From positions 1 to 36,054 of the forward strand of contig WFTA01000033.1 of NCBI GenBank assembly GCA_015485715.1: a stretch of 36,054 nt of DNA, in the 5' to 3' direction. Made by a program: the position numbers and the translations under genes. Under the pieces are notes generated by a model that worked only from the letters and a program-made list of their open reading frames with translations, did not search any database and was not told where the DNA came from. Positions within the stretch are counted from its first letter, which is position 1, and each line of letters opens with the position of its first letter. Positions 4,251 to 31,645 of this stretch are shown piece after piece. This DNA is from Patescibacteria group bacterium. Lineage in GTDB: Bacteria > Patescibacteriota > Patescibacteriia > WFTA01 > S139-112.

Positions 4251-5468
4251 ATGAAAAAAGCGCTTGCAAGTGTTTTGAAAATTCTATCCAGACTTGTCCT
4301 GAAAGTACACAGACCCTATGTAGTGGCAGTAACAGGGTCTTATGGAAAAACCACTACAAAAGATTTTATTTACGAAATATTGAAGGAAAAATATTTTGTC
4401 TGGAGAAGTGAGGGTAATCTAAATACAGAGCTTGGACTTCCTTTGGCTATTGCTGGCGTGAGAGTGTTTCCTGAAAAAAAAATTTTTAAGTGGATTTTTA
4501 CTCTTGCAAGGTTTATTTACTTTCTTCTGCCTTTTATATCCTACCCTAAGTATCTTGTGCTTGAAATGGGAGCTGATAAACCGGGAGATATATCTTATTT
4601 GTTGAGTATTGCACAACCTAAAATATCGGTTATCACTGCTGTTGGACCCACACATCTTCATCTTTTTGGATCTGTAGAAAATGTGCTTAAGGAAAAAGTC
4701 AAGCTTATTTATGCCCTGCCCCCAGAAGGCGTAGCTGTTATCAATAAAGACAGTTATGTCTTGTATGATTTTATTACTAAAACAGATCGACATTATCTGA
4801 CATACAGTACAGCTTCAAGCGATGCAAATATATATGCAGATAATATAGAATTTATAGTAAATACCTCAGATGAAAATATAGGAGGCACTAAATTTGATGT
4901 ATGTTTTCAGGAAAAGAGAAAAAAAATATATTTAAAAGGAGTTGTGGGTATTGGATACATATATGCAAGTTTGGCTGCCATTGGTGTGGCTTTGCATTGT
5001 GGATTTACATTTGATGAGTGCGCAAACCTGCTTTCAAAAAGAGAGATAATGGTCAAGGACAGAATGATCTTGAAAAAATACATAAAAGGTAGTATCATTA
5101 TTAATGATGTTTACAATTCGTCTCCAGATGCTCTAAGGTCAGCACTTAGTATATTATCCAGTATTAAGTGGCAAGGCAGAAAAATAGCGGTCCTTGGAGA
5201 TATGCTGGAGCTTGGTGTACATTCACAAAAATATCATATAGAAGCAGGAAAGCACGCAGCAGATGTGTGCGATATGGTGATAGGTATTGGTGAGGAGGCA
5301 AAGATGCTGGTTGATGAAGCTGGTAAAAAACTGGGTGAGGAAAAGGTAAAATGGTTTCCCAAAGAGGATTTGGAGGGACTAAAACAATATTTGTATCAGG
5401 TAATTGCAGAAGATGATCTGGTATTGATGAAAGCATCACGGGGAATACATTTGGAGAGGATAATATGA
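4251..5468 (+). CDS. murF: UDP-MurNAc-tripeptide:D-Ala-D-Ala ligase, short form lacking the usual N-terminal domain
   Basis: VTGSYGKTTTK, NLNTELGLP, LEMG, NDVYNSSP, LGDMLELG, KASRG. Confidence 0.9.
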   Translation: MKKALASVLKILSRLVLKVHRPYVVAVTGSYGKTTTKDFIYEILKEKYFVWRSEGNLNTELGLPLAIAGVRVFPEKKIFKWIFTLARFIYFLLPFISYPKYLVLEMGADKPGDISYLLSIAQPKISVITAVGPTHLHLFGSVENVLKEKVKLIYALPPEGVAVINKDSYVLYDFITKTDRHYLTYSTASSDANIYADNIEFIVNTSDENIGGTKFDVCFQEKRKKIYLKGVVGIGYIYASLAAIGVALHCGFTFDECANLLSKREIMVKDRMILKKYIKGSIIINDVYNSSPDALRSALSILSSIKWQGRKIAVLGDMLELGVHSQKYHIEAGKHAADVCDMVIGIGEEAKMLVDEAGKKLGEEKVKWFPKEDLEGLKQYLYQVIAEDDLVLMKASRGIHLERII

Positions 5469-5471
5469 TAG

Positions 5472-5826
5472 TAATTTTCAATTTTCAACCCCAGTCATCC
5501 CAGTTATACGACCATGTCATGCGACATGGCAAGCGGGACAAGTACGACCCCAATCATACGATAGGGCAGGCGGGGTAAAATTTTCAATTAACCAATGAAT
5601 TTACAATGATTTAATATTCTAATGGTTTAAACTATAATATACTGATACTTAGTACAGTGTTTATGGTTTGATTCATTGGATAATTAAATAATTGAAAATT
5701 TTATATTAGGATTTAGGATTTATTTATAAATTGGTTTTTGGGAAATTGTTTGTAAATTGAAAATTGAAAATTTGTAAATTACCTTTGGTCATTGTTTAGA
5801 ATTTAGAGTTTCGTATTTAGGATTTT
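5472..5826 (+). repeat. AT-rich heptamer cassette between murF and tRNA-Glu
   Basis: AATTTTC runs at the 5' end, GAAAATT runs and a TTTAG(A/G)A tail at the 3' end. Confidence 0.7.
5488..5579 (+). repeat. Four nested REP-like mini-hairpin units
   Basis: Parses as ACCCCAGTCA[TCCCAGTTATACGA{CCATGTCATGCGACATGGCAAG}CGGGACAAG]TACGA[CCCCAATCATACGATAGGGCAGG]CGGGGTAAA. Confidence 0.75.
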
Positions 5827-5839
5827 ACTACTTTTTTAT

Positions 5840-5912
5840 GCCGCGTTCGTCTAGTGGCCTAGGACGCCAGGTTCTCAGCCTGGAAACACGGGTTCGATTC
5901 CCGTACGCGGTG
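5840..5912 (+). tRNA. tRNA-Glu(CTC)
   Basis: Cloverleaf: GCCGCGT/ACGCGGT acceptor, CCAGG-TTCTCAG-CCTGG anticodon arm, ACGGG-TTCGATT-CCCGT T arm; no encoded CCA. Confidence 0.95.
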
Positions 5913-5913
5913 C

Positions 5914-7974
5914 ATGGATATGAGGCGGGGAAAAAATATCCTTGATTTAAGGGCTTTAAATAAAAGCAGGAGAGGGGCTAAGCAAGATTCGTATTTTAGA
6001 TCTGTTTCGATACATAACAAAGATGATCAGACATCTTATACTAATAACCCGGGTTCTGCGATTAAAGCCCCTAAGATAAAATTCCACATTCTTAAAGGGA
6101 TTGTGGATGATTTTATTTTTTCTGTAAAAAGGCTTTTTGATTTTAAAAAAGATAAATACACCCTTAACTTGGCTCCTGTAGAGGAGAAGGATAATATTAT
6201 ATTTTACATTGTATCACAGGCTGCTAGGTATTTATTTATAATAGTTTACTATATCTTTAAGGTTGTTAAAGGTATAGTATTTTTTCCGATAGTTTTGCTT
6301 GATAATATTTTAGATTTTATTGCCAAGCTTATATATATTCTTATAAAATATATTCTGTCTTTTATTGTTTTCATATTGAAAAAGGTATTTTATTTTTTAA
6401 GAGAACTTATCTCAATATTGGATATTCAGGTACCCTATTTTTGGTATAAAAAGTTGTTTGTTTTTGCAGTTTTTTCTTTTATTCTCATCATTCCTATAAA
6501 AATGTATTATTTAAAGGACACAGTAAATAAAGTCAGAGGCGAGGTTTTAGGAATATCAATCAAAGCTTTGTCCTACACTAACATTTTATCTTATGTAGAT
6601 GATTATTTGCCGGTTTTAAATATTGCCAAGTACTTTGCAGGTATTCCTGATAAGCGCAATATTTTGCTTATTTTCCAAAACAATGCTGAGCTTAGGCCAA
6701 CAGGAGGGTTTTTAGGATCTTATGCCTATCTGTCTGTGAAAAATGCTGAGATACTTGATCTGGATATTCCGGGTGGTGGTTTTTATGATCTTAAGGGTTA
6801 TGTTTCAAGAAAGATAGAAGCTCCGCTTCCTTTTCATATATTTTCGCCATATTGGCAGGTATGGAATGCCAACTGGTTTGCTGATTTTCCCCTATCTGCT
6901 GAGAAAATAATTAAACTTTATGAGATCTCAGGAGGGGAAACAGTTGACGGTATTATAGCTATTACCCCTGATGTTGTAGAGGATATTCTCTCTCTCACAG
7001 GTCCAATAGAAGTAAAAGATGGTCTGACTATAGATAGAAATAATTTTAGGACACTTACCCAAACTGAGGTAGAGATAAATTATGACAAAGAAGAAAACAG
7101 ACCAAAAGAGTTTATTAAAGATTTATTTGTGAAGGTGGCAGAACGGCTTATAAGCCAGCTTGATGAAAAGCAGGGAAAAAAGAAGGAAGAATATATAAAA
7201 AATCTGCTATATATTATTGATAAAAATCTAAAAGAGAAAAATATTCTTGTTTATGCTTCAGATTCTGATATAGAAAAAGAAATTATAGATATTGGATGGG
7301 GAGGTGAGTTAAAGGATGTGCCTTACGGGAATTATTTGTCAGTTGTACATACAAATATAGGAGGAGGAAAATCTGATCTGGTGATTCAAAATAAAATAAG
7401 ACATATTATGAGAGTTCAGGATCAAAAGATTATATCTGAAGTATATCTTACCCGTACCCATAATGGCAAAGAAGGAGAATTATTTTACGGGACAAATAAT
7501 TTAGATTATATCAGATTTTACACTCCATTAGGTTCAAAACTTATAGAAGCATCAGGTTTTTTATCAGATGACATTTCAGACAGGTTTGAATATATAGAAG
7601 GTATCAATCTCAAAAAAGACGAGGATCTTGAATATTCTATGAAGACTGCATCAATGGATGCTAAAAGTAAGACTGAGATATATGAGGAATCAGGAAAAAC
7701 TGTTTTTGCAAACTGGCTTAGCTTGAAGCCCGGACAAAGTAAAACTGTTTATTTAAAATATGAGACTCCTCTTGGACAAGGCGAAGATTTGATGGTTTTT
7801 TACTGGCAAAAGCAGGCAGGAGATATGAATACATATATAGAAAGTGAGATATATTTAGAAGACAGTGTTAATAAAAGTTCAGTGTTCGGCGATAATGTGT
7901 TGATTAATGGAAATAAAATTATATACTCTAATGACCTTAGACAGGATAGATATGTATTTATTTCTTTGAAGTGA
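5914..7974 (+). CDS. DUF4012-domain membrane protein
   Basis: FQNNAELRPTGGFLGSY, NWFADFP, DGIIAI motifs; several N-terminal hydrophobic segments; start may be 5920. Confidence 0.8.
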   Translation: MDMRRGKNILDLRALNKSRRGAKQDSYFRSVSIHNKDDQTSYTNNPGSAIKAPKIKFHILKGIVDDFIFSVKRLFDFKKDKYTLNLAPVEEKDNIIFYIVSQAARYLFIIVYYIFKVVKGIVFFPIVLLDNILDFIAKLIYILIKYILSFIVFILKKVFYFLRELISILDIQVPYFWYKKLFVFAVFSFILIIPIKMYYLKDTVNKVRGEVLGISIKALSYTNILSYVDDYLPVLNIAKYFAGIPDKRNILLIFQNNAELRPTGGFLGSYAYLSVKNAEILDLDIPGGGFYDLKGYVSRKIEAPLPFHIFSPYWQVWNANWFADFPLSAEKIIKLYEISGGETVDGIIAITPDVVEDILSLTGPIEVKDGLTIDRNNFRTLTQTEVEINYDKEENRPKEFIKDLFVKVAERLISQLDEKQGKKKEEYIKNLLYIIDKNLKEKNILVYASDSDIEKEIIDIGWGGELKDVPYGNYLSVVHTNIGGGKSDLVIQNKIRHIMRVQDQKIISEVYLTRTHNGKEGELFYGTNNLDYIRFYTPLGSKLIEASGFLSDDISDRFEYIEGINLKKDEDLEYSMKTASMDAKSKTEIYEESGKTVFANWLSLKPGQSKTVYLKYETPLGQGEDLMVFYWQKQAGDMNTYIESEIYLEDSVNKSSVFGDNVLINGNKIIYSNDLRQDRYVFISLK

Positions 7975-18978: not shown

Positions 18979-20508
18979 ATGTCTTTTTCAGAATTTGAAG
19001 CAGTTATTGGCTTAGAGATACATATCCAACTTAAGACAAAACGCAAAATGTTTTGTTGGTGTTCCAATGACGGGGAAAACCAGCCTCCTAATACTACTAT
19101 ATGCGAGGTATGTTTGGGGCATCCCGGCACCCTTCCTGTACCCAACAAACAAGCCATTAAATGGGCAACCCTGATGGCTCTTGCGTTAAATTGCAAGATA
19201 AACCCTTATCAGTTTTTTGACAGAAAGAATTATTTTTATCCGGATCTGCCCAAGGGCTATCAGATTAGCCAGTTTTCTTATCCCATCGGCTATGACGGTG
19301 TTTTAAGCATACCTCCTGTTAAATCAAAATCTAAGACATATATTGAGGAAATGTCAGATGATATAGACATAGGTATAGAGAGGCTTCATCTTGAGGAAGA
19401 TGCGGCCAAAAATATACATGAAAGTGGGAAGATATTGGTTGATTATAACCGTGCTGGGACGCCTTTGATTGAAATAGTAACAAAGCCGGATTTTAGATCA
19501 CCTCAACATGCGAAAGCTTTTCTGCAGGATCTTCAGCTCATTGCAAGATATTTAGGTATTTCAGATGCTGACATGGAGAAAGGACATCTAAGGTGTGATG
19601 CCAATGTATCCCTTAGACCAAGAGGAGAAGATAGGCTTTATCCTAAAACTGAAATTAAAAATCTAAATTCATTTAAATCTGTGGAAAGAGCTTTGGAGTA
19701 TGAGATTCAAAGGCAATTCAAGCTTTGGCAGGAAGGAAAACAAAACACCCTCACACAGGCTACCAGACTTTGGGATGAAAATACTCAGTCAACCTATGAG
19801 ATGAGAACCAAAGAGACAAGTGAGGATTATAGGTATTTCCCTGAGCCTGATATACCTCCTTTTTATTTTGAAGGAGATAATGTCCTGTTTGATGTAGATG
19901 AGGTAAAAAAAGAAATTGGAGAGCTGCCATATGATAAAAGGAAAAGGTTTGTTAAAGAGTATGGCCTAGATATGGAGTCAGCAAGAGTGCTTACAGCAAG
20001 TGTTATACTGGCAAATTATTTTGAAGAGGTTGTGGAAATACTGCATAGTATGATAGAAGATGAGATTGAGAGCCATGATAATGTATATCAGTATATAGGC
20101 AAGCAGACATCCAAGTGGATTGTCAATAAACTGGCAGGTGTTTTGTCAGGAAAAGGAAAGTCTTTAGATGAAAATCCTGTATCTGTTGAACATATGTCGG
20201 AGTTTATGAAGCTGGTTGTAAAAAGAGAGATAAATTCAACTGTTGCTCAGAAAGTTCTGGAGAAGATGGTATCAGAGGGCCTGTCGCCACAAGAGATTTT
20301 AGAATCAGAAGATCTTGCAGGTAGAGTAGAGGATTTGAGTAAAATAGTTGATGAAGTGCTCTCAGAAAACCCTGCAGAGGTTGAGAAATATAGACAGGGA
20401 AAAACTGCTTTGCTACAATTCTTTTTAGGGCAGGTAATGAAAAAAACACAAGGCAAAGCAGATCCACAGGAGGCAACAGAACTTTTGAAAAACAGATTAG
20501 AAAAATAA
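18979..20508 (+). CDS. gatB: Asp-tRNA(Asn)/Glu-tRNA(Gln) amidotransferase subunit B
   Basis: IGLEIHIQL, RKNYFYPDLPKGYQISQ, HLEEDA, YRYFPEPD, GQVMK...GKADP. Confidence 0.97.
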   Translation: MSFSEFEAVIGLEIHIQLKTKRKMFCWCSNDGENQPPNTTICEVCLGHPGTLPVPNKQAIKWATLMALALNCKINPYQFFDRKNYFYPDLPKGYQISQFSYPIGYDGVLSIPPVKSKSKTYIEEMSDDIDIGIERLHLEEDAAKNIHESGKILVDYNRAGTPLIEIVTKPDFRSPQHAKAFLQDLQLIARYLGISDADMEKGHLRCDANVSLRPRGEDRLYPKTEIKNLNSFKSVERALEYEIQRQFKLWQEGKQNTLTQATRLWDENTQSTYEMRTKETSEDYRYFPEPDIPPFYFEGDNVLFDVDEVKKEIGELPYDKRKRFVKEYGLDMESARVLTASVILANYFEEVVEILHSMIEDEIESHDNVYQYIGKQTSKWIVNKLAGVLSGKGKSLDENPVSVEHMSEFMKLVVKREINSTVAQKVLEKMVSEGLSPQEILESEDLAGRVEDLSKIVDEVLSENPAEVEKYRQGKTALLQFFLGQVMKKTQGKADPQEATELLKNRLEK

Positions 20509-20529
20509 AAAAATTCAAAAGTCAAAATT

Positions 20530-20647
20530 CAACCCAGTCCCACCTAGCTCCACTTTTTGAGGTAAATCCTGCTATAAAGCCAATGGGTATGTAATTTGAT
20601 TTAAAGCAACATATCTGCAGATAATGTTGAAAAGTGGGGCTGGATTG
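20530..20647. mobile_element. MITE-like repeat, copy 2 (inverted relative to copy 1; partly duplicated left end)
   Basis: CAACCCAGTCCCAC-CTAGCTCCACTTTTT...AAAAGTGGGGCTGGATTG. Confidence 0.8.
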
Positions 20648-20713
20648 AAAATTGGTAAATTGATGAATTATTTTGGGGTTTGTTTAGGATTTAGGATTTC
20701 GGATTTAGGATTT
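20648..20713 (+). repeat. Heptamer tail (GTAAATT / TTTAGGA runs)
   Basis: Near-identical to 27832-27898 and similar to 5745-5826. Confidence 0.75.
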
Positions 20714-20804
20714 CATTTTTAGAATAATACAGATTAATAACGCTACTTAACAAACATTAAAAAACAATATTGATTTAATCCTCTATAACATCCTAATATA
20801 TATC

Positions 20805-21692
20805 TCAAAACTCTGATATTTCATCTATCAGAACCTGAAGTTCATCTATGGTTATGTGTTGATCAGTGTCTGTATAGGATGTTCCCACTTCTATCAAAAT
20901 ACCATCATAGAGATACCCGTCTTGCGTCTTCATCTGCATAGCCTTTACTGTTTCATCAACAATCTCGTCTCTCTTTTTAGGGCCCAGTGAATGACTGGGA
21001 TCAAAAAACAATCTGCTTCCTGTCTCAAGTTTTACTTTTTCAGCCAGTTGATGAACAGGTGCAGACCTGTAATCACCCTTATCTGGTGTATCTACACCTC
21101 TATGAATCAAAAAATAATCAGCACCTGCACTTTTAGTGTAAGATATCACGCCTTTCCAAGTTTTTTCCAAAACACTTTCTTCTGATCTATTTTCTCCATT
21201 CTGAGACAAAAGCAAATTTGACCATTTGGGATTTTTAAGACCTATCTGCCAGCTATATTCTCTGGCATATCTTGCCATCTCATATATATGCCAGCCCAGC
21301 TGGGCAGGAGCCGGGTTCCACAAAATAAATTCTCCCTCTCCCAGCTTTTTCGCGTACAAAGGAAGCTGAATATGGGGCAAAACTATCTCTGATGCAATTA
21401 CAAGCCCTGTGTCTTTTCTCACCTTTTCTGCTATTTCTATGCTTGGAAGCATATCCCACTCATCAGAGGATACACCTTTAATTGCCTTATCCAAATTTGC
21501 AAGTGCGCTTTCTACATCCATTCCCATACTTTCCGAACTTGAAGAAAAATTTGTCCTTGATTTAAGACCTACCACTCTCAGACCATATACAGCCCTTTTG
21601 CCTCCAGTCTTTAGATCAGCTATTTTATACAGCTCTTCAATATTGTTTTTATTTACAGAACACGGTCCTGCTATTATCTTTACCTCCTGCAT
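20805..21692 (-). CDS. Divergent class I DAHP synthase / KDO8P synthase family protein
   Basis: IIAGPCSV, K.RT, LKN, HRG, DPSH, DGILIEV motifs; aromatic attenuator upstream favours DAHP synthase. Confidence 0.75.
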   Translation of the reverse strand: MQEVKIIAGPCSVNKNNIEELYKIADLKTGGKRAVYGLRVVGLKSRTNFSSSSESMGMDVESALANLDKAIKGVSSDEWDMLPSIEIAEKVRKDTGLVIASEIVLPHIQLPLYAKKLGEGEFILWNPAPAQLGWHIYEMARYAREYSWQIGLKNPKWSNLLLSQNGENRSEESVLEKTWKGVISYTKSAGADYFLIHRGVDTPDKGDYRSAPVHQLAEKVKLETGSRLFFDPSHSLGPKKRDEIVDETVKAMQMKTQDGYLYDGILIEVGTSYTDTDQHITIDELQVLIDEISEF

Positions 21693-27980: not shown

Positions 27981-28034
27981 CTAGCAATGTATCATCAACA
28001 AAACATATCTACAGAAAATCACATTGTATAATGA

Positions 28035-28129
28035 GTGGGTTCACCCTGTCACCCCAGTCATTCGACGGGATAAATATGACAGGGTGCCCTGATGTATATC
28101 AGGGCAAATCCCACCACCGGTACTAGCAA
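28035..28129 (+). pseudogene. Duplicated tRNA-Met 3' fragment with a 63-nt nested hairpin insert in the T loop
   Basis: GTGGGTTC[insert]AAATCCCACCACCGGTACTAGCAA; 28105-28129 is identical to 27963-27987. Confidence 0.8.
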
Positions 28130-28193
28130 ATTTTCGCTTCGCTCAAATTTAATTACCCTAACACAAAGATAATTTGACTCTACATTATAATGA

Positions 28194-31458: not shown

Positions 31459-31502
31459 TTTGGGTGGGTAGCTCAGGTGGTTACCCCGTCAGTCGACAGG
31501 GT
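31459..31502 (+). pseudogene. Duplicated tRNA-Ile 5' fragment ending at a mini-hairpin
   Basis: 31459-31483 identical to 31555-31579, followed by ACCCCGTC-AGTC-GACAGGGT. Confidence 0.8.
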
Positions 31503-31557
31503 TCATATCAAATCTTATTCATCTGTAAATCTCAATTCTGTAATAATAAGAATGTTT

Positions 31558-31631
31558 GGGTGGGTAGCTCAGGTGGTTAGAGCGCATCCCTGATAAGGAT
31601 GAGGTCGGAGGTTCGAGTCCTCCCTCACCCA
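31558..31631 (+). tRNA. tRNA-Ile(GAT)
   Basis: GGGTGGG/CTCACCC acceptor, CATCC-CTGATAA-GGATG, GGAGG-TTCGAGT-CCTCC. Confidence 0.96.
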
Positions 31632-31645
31632 CAGCAAATTTTCCC

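Follow-up and report, generated by a model that had tools for sequence, protein, structure and literature searches.

To our knowledge, the small dispersed repeats (SDRs) of the Nostocaceae are the only published case of mobile DNA as small as about 22 nt, and they are still unexplained. Elhai et al. 2008 (Genome Res 18:1484) reportedly described SDR4, SDR5, and SDR6, with hairpin potential, compensatory changes, and nested copies. Elements of the IS200/IS605 group have distinct left and right subterminal hairpins, are strict in the tetra- or pentanucleotide that they target, carry or adjoin a TnpA gene, and show a strong lagging-strand bias. The mobile GC clusters and palindromes of AT-rich organelle genomes, such as those of yeast mitochondria and Volvox, are short GC-rich hairpins that have multiplied in the AT-rich spacers of small genomes, with no known enzyme. 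The present analysis concerns a GC-rich island at positions 5488-5579 of contig WFTA01000033.1 from a Patescibacteria group bacterium (36,054 nt, the whole stretch analysed, termed the window). The island probably consists of four nested copies of a 22-24-nt non-autonomous mobile module, in kind a very small mobile repeat like the SDRs or the repetitive extragenic palindromes (REPs). The window is the whole of contig C33 of an assembly of 980,733 bp in 87 contigs (GC 34.4%, completeness 88.6%).

In passages that discuss the SDRs, SDR5 is a 21-nt repeat of unknown function that is inserted precisely between bases 3 and 4 of HIP1 (PMC4390886), and no SDR is placed outside the Nostocaceae (PMC5861425); the account of the SDRs given here rests on general knowledge and on passages in these two papers, PMC13756078, and PMC3116915. 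Of the GTAG- and CGTC-tagged REP families treated by Di Nocera et al. 2013 (PMC3733652), the CGTC REPs are described as having the tag CGTC or TGTC, stems that begin with AT, loops of 4-5 nt, a tail CCA, and apparently no dedicated transposase, and the same paper reports that some REP families are inserted within other palindromes. Insertion of IS200/IS605 is, according to passages in PMC6006769, hairpin-dependent and strand-specific, and takes place in a single strand 3' of a short target with no duplication.

Positions 5488-5579 resolve into exactly four nested modules of 22-24 nt, each a hairpin with a 4-nt tail, with no leftover bases. The coordinates and parse given in a preliminary description of the sequence were found to be exact. 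The parts of the island are as follows.

5488-5497, 5543-5547, and 5571-5579, forward strand: host module, rebuilt sequence ACCCCAGTCATACGACGGGGTAAA / CCCCAGTCATACGACGGGGTAAA.
5488-5497, forward strand: 5' part of the host module, ACCCCAGTCA, the end of which is insertion site a (GTCA^T).
5543-5547, forward strand: middle part of the host module, TACGA, the end of which is site b.
5571-5579, forward strand: 3' part of the host module, CGGGGTAAA.
5498-5511 and 5534-5542, forward strand: second module (U2), joined sequence TCCCAGTTATACGACGGGACAAG.
5498-5511, forward strand: 5' part of U2, TCCCAGTTATACGA, the end of which is insertion site b (CGA^C).
5534-5542, forward strand: 3' part of U2, CGGGACAAG.
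5512-5533, forward strand: innermost module (U3), CCATGTC-ATGC-GACATGG-CAAG = CCATGTCATGCGACATGGCAAG, with a perfect 7-bp stem.
5548-5570, forward strand: fourth module (U4), CCCCAATC-ATAC-GATAGGG-CAGG = CCCCAATCATACGATAGGGCAGG.

Relative to its paralogues, which read CCCTAATC, U4 carries a T>C change and has lost one stem pair. As a result of this change, an automated parser placed the U4 boundary off by 1 nt, and the parse in the preliminary description is the better one at this point. The rebuilt host is letter-identical to bare copies on other contigs (C3:10307, C46:2683, and C73:1903), and the arrangement of U3 in the same host is found again at C1, C19, and C57. The nesting was also reproduced by the minimum-energy fold calculated with RNA parameters (-30.3 kcal/mol). 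As single-stranded DNA, the 92-mer was not more stable than shuffles (z -0.47).

Modules of the same kind are distributed over the whole genome. The hairpin of each is GC-rich, with a distal stem of 4 bp, a bulged A in most cases, a proximal stem of 3 bp, and a 4-nt loop AYNC, and a 4-nt tail follows on the 3' side; the apex is conserved as (G/A)TC-AYNC-GA(C/T). A parser that required a 4+3-bp stem and the loop AYNC, with the bulge optional and any 4-nt tail allowed, identified 94 simple modules in the genome, whereas three block-shuffles contained 7, 9, and 11 and the reversed genome 23. When modules were excised and the sequence was rescanned in rounds, 116 were obtained in the 0.98-Mb genome (9-13 in shuffles), of which 103 belonged to level 1, 11 to level 2, and 2 to level 3; there were none past level 1 in the controls. 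Removal of an inner module restored a canonical host 13 times but not once in the shuffled and reversed controls. Given that excision of a hairpin plus exactly 4 nt restores the host, the tail is part of the module and no target is duplicated, as had been proposed for insertions at GTCA^TA and TACGA^C. The bare core TCATNCGA was not over-represented as an 8-mer (80 observed, ∼116 expected), and the non-random element is the hairpin context rather than the core itself. Among 72 non-redundant modules the tails included TAAA (22), CAAG (10), CAGG (9), CGCC (8), and CACC (3). The tag is thus not GTAG, in line with the earlier account, to which the CGCC/CACC class is an addition.

Insertion within other modules follows definite rules. 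Of 17 modules found within a recognised host, 5 occupy GTCA^T and the other 12 NCGA^C or TCAA^C, a boundary one base rightward being equally possible at this second site. The two sites are used by different sub-families: inserts at site a are of the (T/C)CCCAGTY...(T/C)AA(A/G) type, the CCCCAGTC...(T/C)AA(A/G) sub-family, and those at site b are CCCTAATC..CAGG, CCATGTC..CAAG, CCACGTC..CGGG, and CTGTGTC..CAGG. All 17 true nests are oriented as their host. Four apparent nests in opposite orientation were rejected as artefacts that arise from overlapping back-to-back pairs. Insertions into REP hosts, inspected by eye, had the same polarity in 10 of 10 cases. Because some composites recur whole, the 17 nests were counted by eye as at least 10 separate events.

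Alignment of 72 non-redundant junctions showed a purine at position -1 in 66 and a pyrimidine at position -3 in 66; the corresponding values in other genomes were 71 and 60 of 82. The target is just 3' of Y-N-R, and each insertion adds one module without target duplication. Modules of the CGCC-tail class prefer TTCG^. Since the apex of the module itself holds two Y-N-R sites (GTCA^T and NCGA^C), Russian dolls form. Targets of other kinds included TGTC-tagged REPs, terminator-like palindromes, T-loops of tRNA-gene fragments, and the P3 loop of RNase P RNA. Each addition brings one discrete module, with fixed polarity, into the unpaired apex of another hairpin, and the ultra-short, self-targeting unit envisaged earlier is upheld in that additions are discrete and fall at defined sites in its own kind. 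As stand-alone copies were found in other places, neither of the two outcomes that the preliminary description named as refuting it was obtained. Reuse of the GTCA^TA site at 28051/28052, also noticed before, was confirmed by a stand-alone copy at this second place in the window.

28042-28086, forward strand: palindromic host hairpin CACCCTGTCA^TATGACAGGGTG, carrying a module at GTCA^TA (28052-28074).
28052-28074, forward strand: stand-alone type-A module CCCCAGTC-ATTC-GACGGGA-TAAA.
28083-28104, reverse strand: CACC/CGCC-tail-class module CCCTGAT-ATAC-ATCAGGG-CACC, back to back with the host hairpin.

The module is not confined to this genome. The exact 22-mer pattern CCCAGTCATNCGACGGGRYAAR was present in more than 105 stretches of one-genome-per-species contigs. 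The 80 matches listed included Patescibacteria (Uhr-, Roizman-, Komeili-, Falkow-, Staskawicz-, and Saccharibacteria), many Victivallis, Victivallales, and Lentisphaerota, several metagenome-assembled genomes (MAGs) of Gammaproteobacteria and Bdellovibrionales, one Verrucomicrobiota, and one Miltoncostaeaceae. In an even phylum sample, the 17-nt core (≤1 mismatch) was found in 20 of 401 genomes, and a reversed-pattern control gave 2 matches in total. This genome has 25 copies, the sample maximum, followed by a second Patescibacteria genome (G416) with 8. Two Victivallales have 46 and 36 copies and three further genomes 4-6; the present genome has the most per megabase of the six counted. Matches in PLSDB plasmids and cultured phages were at chance level only, and IMG/VR viral contigs gave no exact matches.

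In other genomes the module usually lies within the loop of another hairpin. Once it was excised, the flanks formed a perfect contiguous stem of ≥5 bp in 41 of 82 cases, compared with 6.5% of 3000 random places, and one of ≥6 bp in 31 of 82, compared with 2.0%. This contiguous-stem measure was used in place of an RNAfold count of junction-crossing pairs, which was rejected because real and random places were alike in this AT-rich genome (4.60 versus 4.57). A Victivallales palindrome, TTAGGCGGCCA..GGCCGCAA, has its arms 0-1 nt apart 8 times and 22-24 nt apart 16 times, with no other spacing up to 60 nt and with empty and filled states within the same loci. The RNase P RNA of a Gammaproteobacteria MAG gave a full-length match to RF00010 (211.5 bits) in which the module forms extra columns in the P3 loop. 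Russian dolls at the two sites also occur in Victivallis loci L026 and L088; nesting is much rarer in other genomes, with 1 restored host among 133 parsed modules. The preliminary description is partly supported, in that its ultra-short hairpin module is added as a discrete unit. The spread of the module across phyla, its use of any hairpin apex as a target, and the SDR precedent lay outside that description, and the enzyme proposed there, considered below, is not supported.

Within this genome a second repeat family serves as host. Arrays of TGTCAT-stem-loop-stem-ATCCA hairpins in alternating orientation (for example TGTCATCCCCCGCGAAAGCGGGAGATCCA) are found on four contigs, and they fit the CGTC/TGTC-tagged REPs. 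These TGTC-REPs accept the module at TCA^AG; some loops are filled, and at C34 empty and filled copies adjoin. A regular-expression search detected none in the window.

C34:12400-13000, C64:4500-4900, C41:9300-9700, C41:10950-11300, and C75:15000-15800: TGTC-tagged REP arrays (dRS3/CGTC-like).

Islands also cluster at tRNA genes, with 22 of 73 at ≤150 nt from one against 1.0 expected. In 9 of 39 tRNA genes, the 3' end (T-loop 3' half, T-stem, and acceptor strand) is repeated 85-128 nt downstream of the gene, and the repeat has one or two modules at the T-loop position, e.g. GGGTTCG/hairpin/hairpin/AATCCC... These duplications are present in the window at 27982-28130 and also at C5, C13, C21, C34, C51, and C72, and several of the fragments stop at the mature tRNA end. 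Similar arrangements, with GGTTCG followed by a module, are seen in other Patescibacteria (loci L052, L091, and L092). In a mirror case, the first ∼22 bases of a tRNA are copied up to a module that lies within the D-loop or next to it, and a 49-57-nt spacer and then the intact tRNA follow; this was seen for tRNA-Ile, Ser-gct, Ala-tgc, and Gln-ctg (window 31462-31557; C34, C48, C49, and C83). For tRNA-Thr, a 95-nt piece that includes the upstream flank forms two tandem repeats. At C9:10530-10700 (L125), a 30-nt copy of the 16S rRNA 5' end is split by a module at GGCT^CAGGAT and precedes the start of the genuine gene by ∼100 nt; the genuine gene (Rfam SSU, 1129.8 bits) has 83- and 313-nt insertions relative to the model. 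The two cases in the window have the following parts.

28107-28130, forward strand: second tRNA-Met 3' end (T-loop 3' half, T-stem, acceptor strand, and a few bases beyond), which together with GTGGGTTCA at 28035-28043 makes a pseudo T-arm with the hairpins within its loop.
31462-31505, forward strand: copy of tRNA-Ile bases 1-22 (31462-31483), then a module-like hairpin CCCCGTC-AGTC-GACAGGG-TTCA (31484-31505); the intact tRNA-Ile (31558-31632) follows after a 52-nt spacer.

The module would move in single-stranded form, with an enzyme acting in trans that recognises the conserved apex, makes a cut at each end of the module, and joins it into single-stranded hairpin loops. The leading candidate for this role, put forward tentatively by analogy, is an HUH Y1 transposase of the RAYT/IS200 type, for which single-stranded loops could provide the access route to the target; a widely conserved host enzyme would be the alternative. 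The preliminary description had gone further and treated the modules as REP-type substrates of a RAYT or IS200/IS605 HUH Y1 transposase that makes a single-strand cut beside the hairpin and mobilises them in trans. This explanation is possible but doubtful. The anatomy fits it: the single hairpin with its short unpaired tag, the lack of duplication, the fixed polarity, and the targets in single-stranded loops. RAYT-like genes are also found in many module-bearing genomes and match REP_Tyr_transpos best in NCBIfam, with the cut-off reached by 2 of 6.

Several results weigh against a mobile module, and those that concern the enzyme count against the HUH attribution in particular. The present genome is the densest in modules of those counted, and its 88.6%-complete assembly gave no Y1_Tnp match above cut-off (best 13.2 bits) and likewise none for the TnpB zinc ribbon, RVT_1, or IS110; two tyrosine recombinases are present. 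Given that the assembly is incomplete and that many contigs end in repeats, the enzyme gene may be missing from it. A stretch of C28 that scored 14.9 bits with a relative's RAYT-like query was rejected, as its open reading frame (ORF) reads like a family-2 glycosyltransferase. In the even phylum sample, Y1 genes (E ≤ 0.001; module and Y1 lists cross-tabulated by hand) occur in 189 of 401 genomes, namely in 12 of 19 with modules versus 177 of 381 others, a weak association. A strong link suggested by small hand-picked samples (14 of 15 versus 2 of 10, E ≤ 0.01) was rejected because the even sample shows Y1 to be common. The Y1 match of G416 is weak (17.9 bits alone, 26.5 with in-frame neighbours, none at E ≤ 0.001). 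TnpA or RAYT genes flanked by modules, as anticipated by the preliminary description, were not seen at any of 10 Y1 loci inspected in other genomes. In one genome (G079), a multi-copy RAYT-like gene (8 Y1 matches) lies in a ∼665-nt element bounded by inverted hairpins GTTGGTTCAAAGCTCCTGCTTTGAACC (loci L132, L137, and L138); the hairpin at its borders, GGTTCAAAGCTCCTGCTTTGAACC, is not that of the module, and the element resembles a REPtron-like unit that belongs to another repeat family. The modules have no GTAG or CGTC tag. Targeting of the lagging strand, as in IS608, would predict a strand bias, and the orientation of islands was 45:28 relative to GC skew and 22:16 relative to co-directional neighbouring genes, which gives little sign of a marked bias.

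The remaining results on this side concern the insertions themselves. Many copies share long flanks, so that independent insertions are far fewer than copies. Orthologous insertion polymorphism was not demonstrated, in that metagenome contigs yielded two relatives of the adjacent Mur-ligase at 25-29% identity; in the genome search, relatives of the locus shared only the tRNA and AT-rich pieces. In the four best sequencing runs, which belong to one study, no Logan contig spans the island with unique flanks to reveal alleles that lack modules, as contigs break at repeats. In 3 runs, 5507-5542 (36 nt) is bypassed by a joint with a 7-nt ambiguity, which was not assignable to the island locus. The stems covary (pair 1, CG 45/TA 12; pair 4, CG 25/TA 19; pair 7, CG 40/TA 17), which speaks for the module, but the count is partly circular because modules were picked for pairing.

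It is unlikely, though worth setting out, that the module has no transposase of its own and is moved by a conserved host enzyme acting on T-loop-like hairpins in single-stranded nucleic acid. Such an enzyme would explain the presence of an identical 22-mer in Patescibacteria and Lentisphaerota and in 1-Mb genomes without a transposase gene. Were this the case, insertion would also create the short tRNA and 16S gene-end duplications, and no self-targeting genome parasite known would be smaller than the module, which would also drive the remodelling of stable-RNA genes.

The island has a fixed position in a larger repeat, AT-rich and built as ..AATTTTCAATTTACAA-[island]-ATTTTCAATCAATTCC.., part of which adjoins it in the window.

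5470-5487, forward strand: AT-rich AATTTTC-type flank, a piece of the larger intergenic repeat.

GC islands at the homologous place in other copies of this repeat are 23, 45-46, 68, or 89-91 nt long, corresponding to 1 to 4 modules. Their complements vary by whole modules, with bare host, host plus one, and host plus two, and the same module kinds are rearranged at C49. The four-module composite of the window recurs at C1 (91% identity) and C57 (97%) and in part at C19; copies have therefore also spread passively with the larger repeat. Many copies in this genome spread, after insertion, as passengers of larger AT-rich repeats that resemble miniature inverted-repeat transposable elements (MITEs). 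A separate group of eight copies of the module CCCCAGTCATTCGACGGGGCAAG (loop ATGC in the C77 copy) has ∼50 nt of identical flank; most are within a ∼200-nt repeat with inverted CCAGCCCCACTTTT ends, and several are at contig ends.

C3:14176, C25:52, C41:2638, C47:21, C62:7920, C77:4243, C85:18960, and C87:7852: copies of CCCCAGTCATTCGACGGGGCAAG.

Such islands might also be hypervariable parts of MITE-like repeats that change by slippage, template switching, or gene conversion, with modules that do not transpose and no dedicated enzyme. Most copies in this genome are indeed at a fixed place in larger repeats, the composite is nearly unchanged at C1 and C57, no transposase was found in the genome, and a Logan contig joins 5506 to 5543 over a 7-nt repeat. 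These processes would not readily yield the same 22-mer in unrelated flanks of several phyla, empty and filled palindromes that differ by exactly one module, a module inserted in an RNase P RNA gene, or the strict polarity and defined sites, and this explanation is also considered improbable.

Mobility of the module was further weighed against selection of the hairpins for a function, as terminators, RNA-stability elements, or binding sites that mimic the tRNA T-loop (the apex holds TTCGA), with nesting as a by-product. Conservation of the apex while stems covary, enrichment near tRNA genes, and the intergenic location of 65 of 73 islands in a genome of which crude ORFs make up 87% are consistent with this suggestion. 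It is nevertheless rated as decidedly improbable, given that whole modules are present or absent at homologous places, that both orientations relative to neighbouring genes occur, that the distribution within the phylum is patchy (20 of 401), and that, on reading the sequences, no T run follows the stem. In a search of 5300-6000 against Rfam, tRNA-Glu was the sole match, and the island had none at E ≤ 10. Very improbable, finally, is a route through RNA, in which the module enters loops of abundant structured RNAs and then reaches the genome by reverse transcription and recombination. The targets do include RNase P RNA, T- and D-loop positions in tRNA-gene fragments, and the 16S rRNA 5' end, and several duplicated tRNA 3' fragments end at the mature end, but the genome has no reverse transcriptase signature, the duplicated 16S and tRNA-Thr pieces contain upstream non-RNA sequence, and many targets are AT-rich intergenic repeats.

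The island is situated in a 371-nt spacer between a Mur-ligase ORF (4251-5468) on one side and tRNA-Glu (5840-5913) and a DUF4012 ORF on the other. The nearest Atlas clusters of the DUF4012 protein are from Candidatus Magasanikiibacteriota, Candidatus Moraniibacteriota, and Chloroflexota. Relatives at the class and phylum level have genomes of ∼0.4-2.1 Mb, and the best-matching public sequencing runs carry the label hydrothermal vent metagenome. To the right of the island, a ∼115-nt segment at 5586-5703 is edged by inverted AATTTTCAAT/ATTGAAAATT and has the opposite orientation in the window to copies at C1, C57, C3, and C49; it is either an invertible segment or a separately inserted MITE-like element. 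An AT-rich module (..TTGTAAATTGAAAATTGAAAATTTG..GTTTAGAATTTAGAGTTTCGTATTTAGGATTT..) at 5740-5835, immediately upstream of tRNA-Glu, occurs at ∼90 places genome-wide, frequently upstream of tRNA genes and at contig ends, and may be mobile or a shared promoter region. GC skew is positive before ∼21 kb and negative after, flipping at ∼20000-21000 with the cumulative maximum there, and this could be a replication origin, a terminus, or a switch in gene orientation.

Mobile DNA of ∼22 nt would mark the lower size limit of recognisable, movable DNA. The rules of this family are clean, with exact boundaries, two apex sites, strict polarity, a preference for loops, and empty and filled sites that adjoin, and its host range is wide and patchy and includes ultra-small Patescibacteria genomes, so that the question of what moves very small repeats becomes testable. 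There are also practical consequences, in that the repeats break assemblies (many contigs here end in them) and that modules inside RNase P RNA or beside tRNA and rRNA genes can mislead annotation. Six module 17-mers were not found in the literature searched (article text), and nothing relevant was found there on Victivallis repeats, REPs of the candidate phyla radiation, or nested palindromes.

Among mobile elements of other kinds, the GC clusters of organelles exceed the module in length (30-50 nt), and target duplications occur in some; nothing points to kinship with the module. A MITE (70-300 bp) has terminal inverted repeats and a target-site duplication, whereas the module has 22-23 nt and no duplication, and it is the surrounding larger repeats that are MITE-like. 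Lack of target duplication is shared with IS200/IS605, from which the module differs in having one hairpin, a loose Y-N-R target, no TnpA in the genome, and a weak strand bias.

Like REPs, which are 20-40 bp in length, the modules are small, palindromic, extragenic (65 of 73 islands), and present in many copies; both are GC-rich with a short unpaired tag or tail (PMC3733652 and PMC3116915). With 22-23 nt and a 7-bp stem, the module is at the bottom of the REP size range. It differs from REPs in its 3' tail (TAAA, CAAG, CAGG, or CGCC), in having no GTAG or CGTC/TGTC tag and no conserved 5' tag, and in its identical sequence across phyla. Unlike REPINs, in which the replicating unit is an inverted doublet, modules are single or in same-orientation nests, with inverted back-to-back pairs only in pseudo T-loops, and unlike the REP/RAYT system no RAYT gene flanked by modules was found, either in this 88.6%-complete genome or at the 10 Y1 loci elsewhere.

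The module is not assigned here to any named family, and its closest precedent is the SDRs of the Nostocaceae. From general knowledge and the citing passages, these are likewise dispersed repeats of ∼21-27 nt that behave as mobile DNA, have no coding capacity and no known enzyme, and are inserted also within other repeats, as the module is. The hosts are different, being Patescibacteria, Victivallales, and others, with no cyanobacterium among the 80 matches listed. The target is also different, being a hairpin apex (Y-N-R^) and not HIP1, and the module is set apart from the SDRs by description rather than by sequence.

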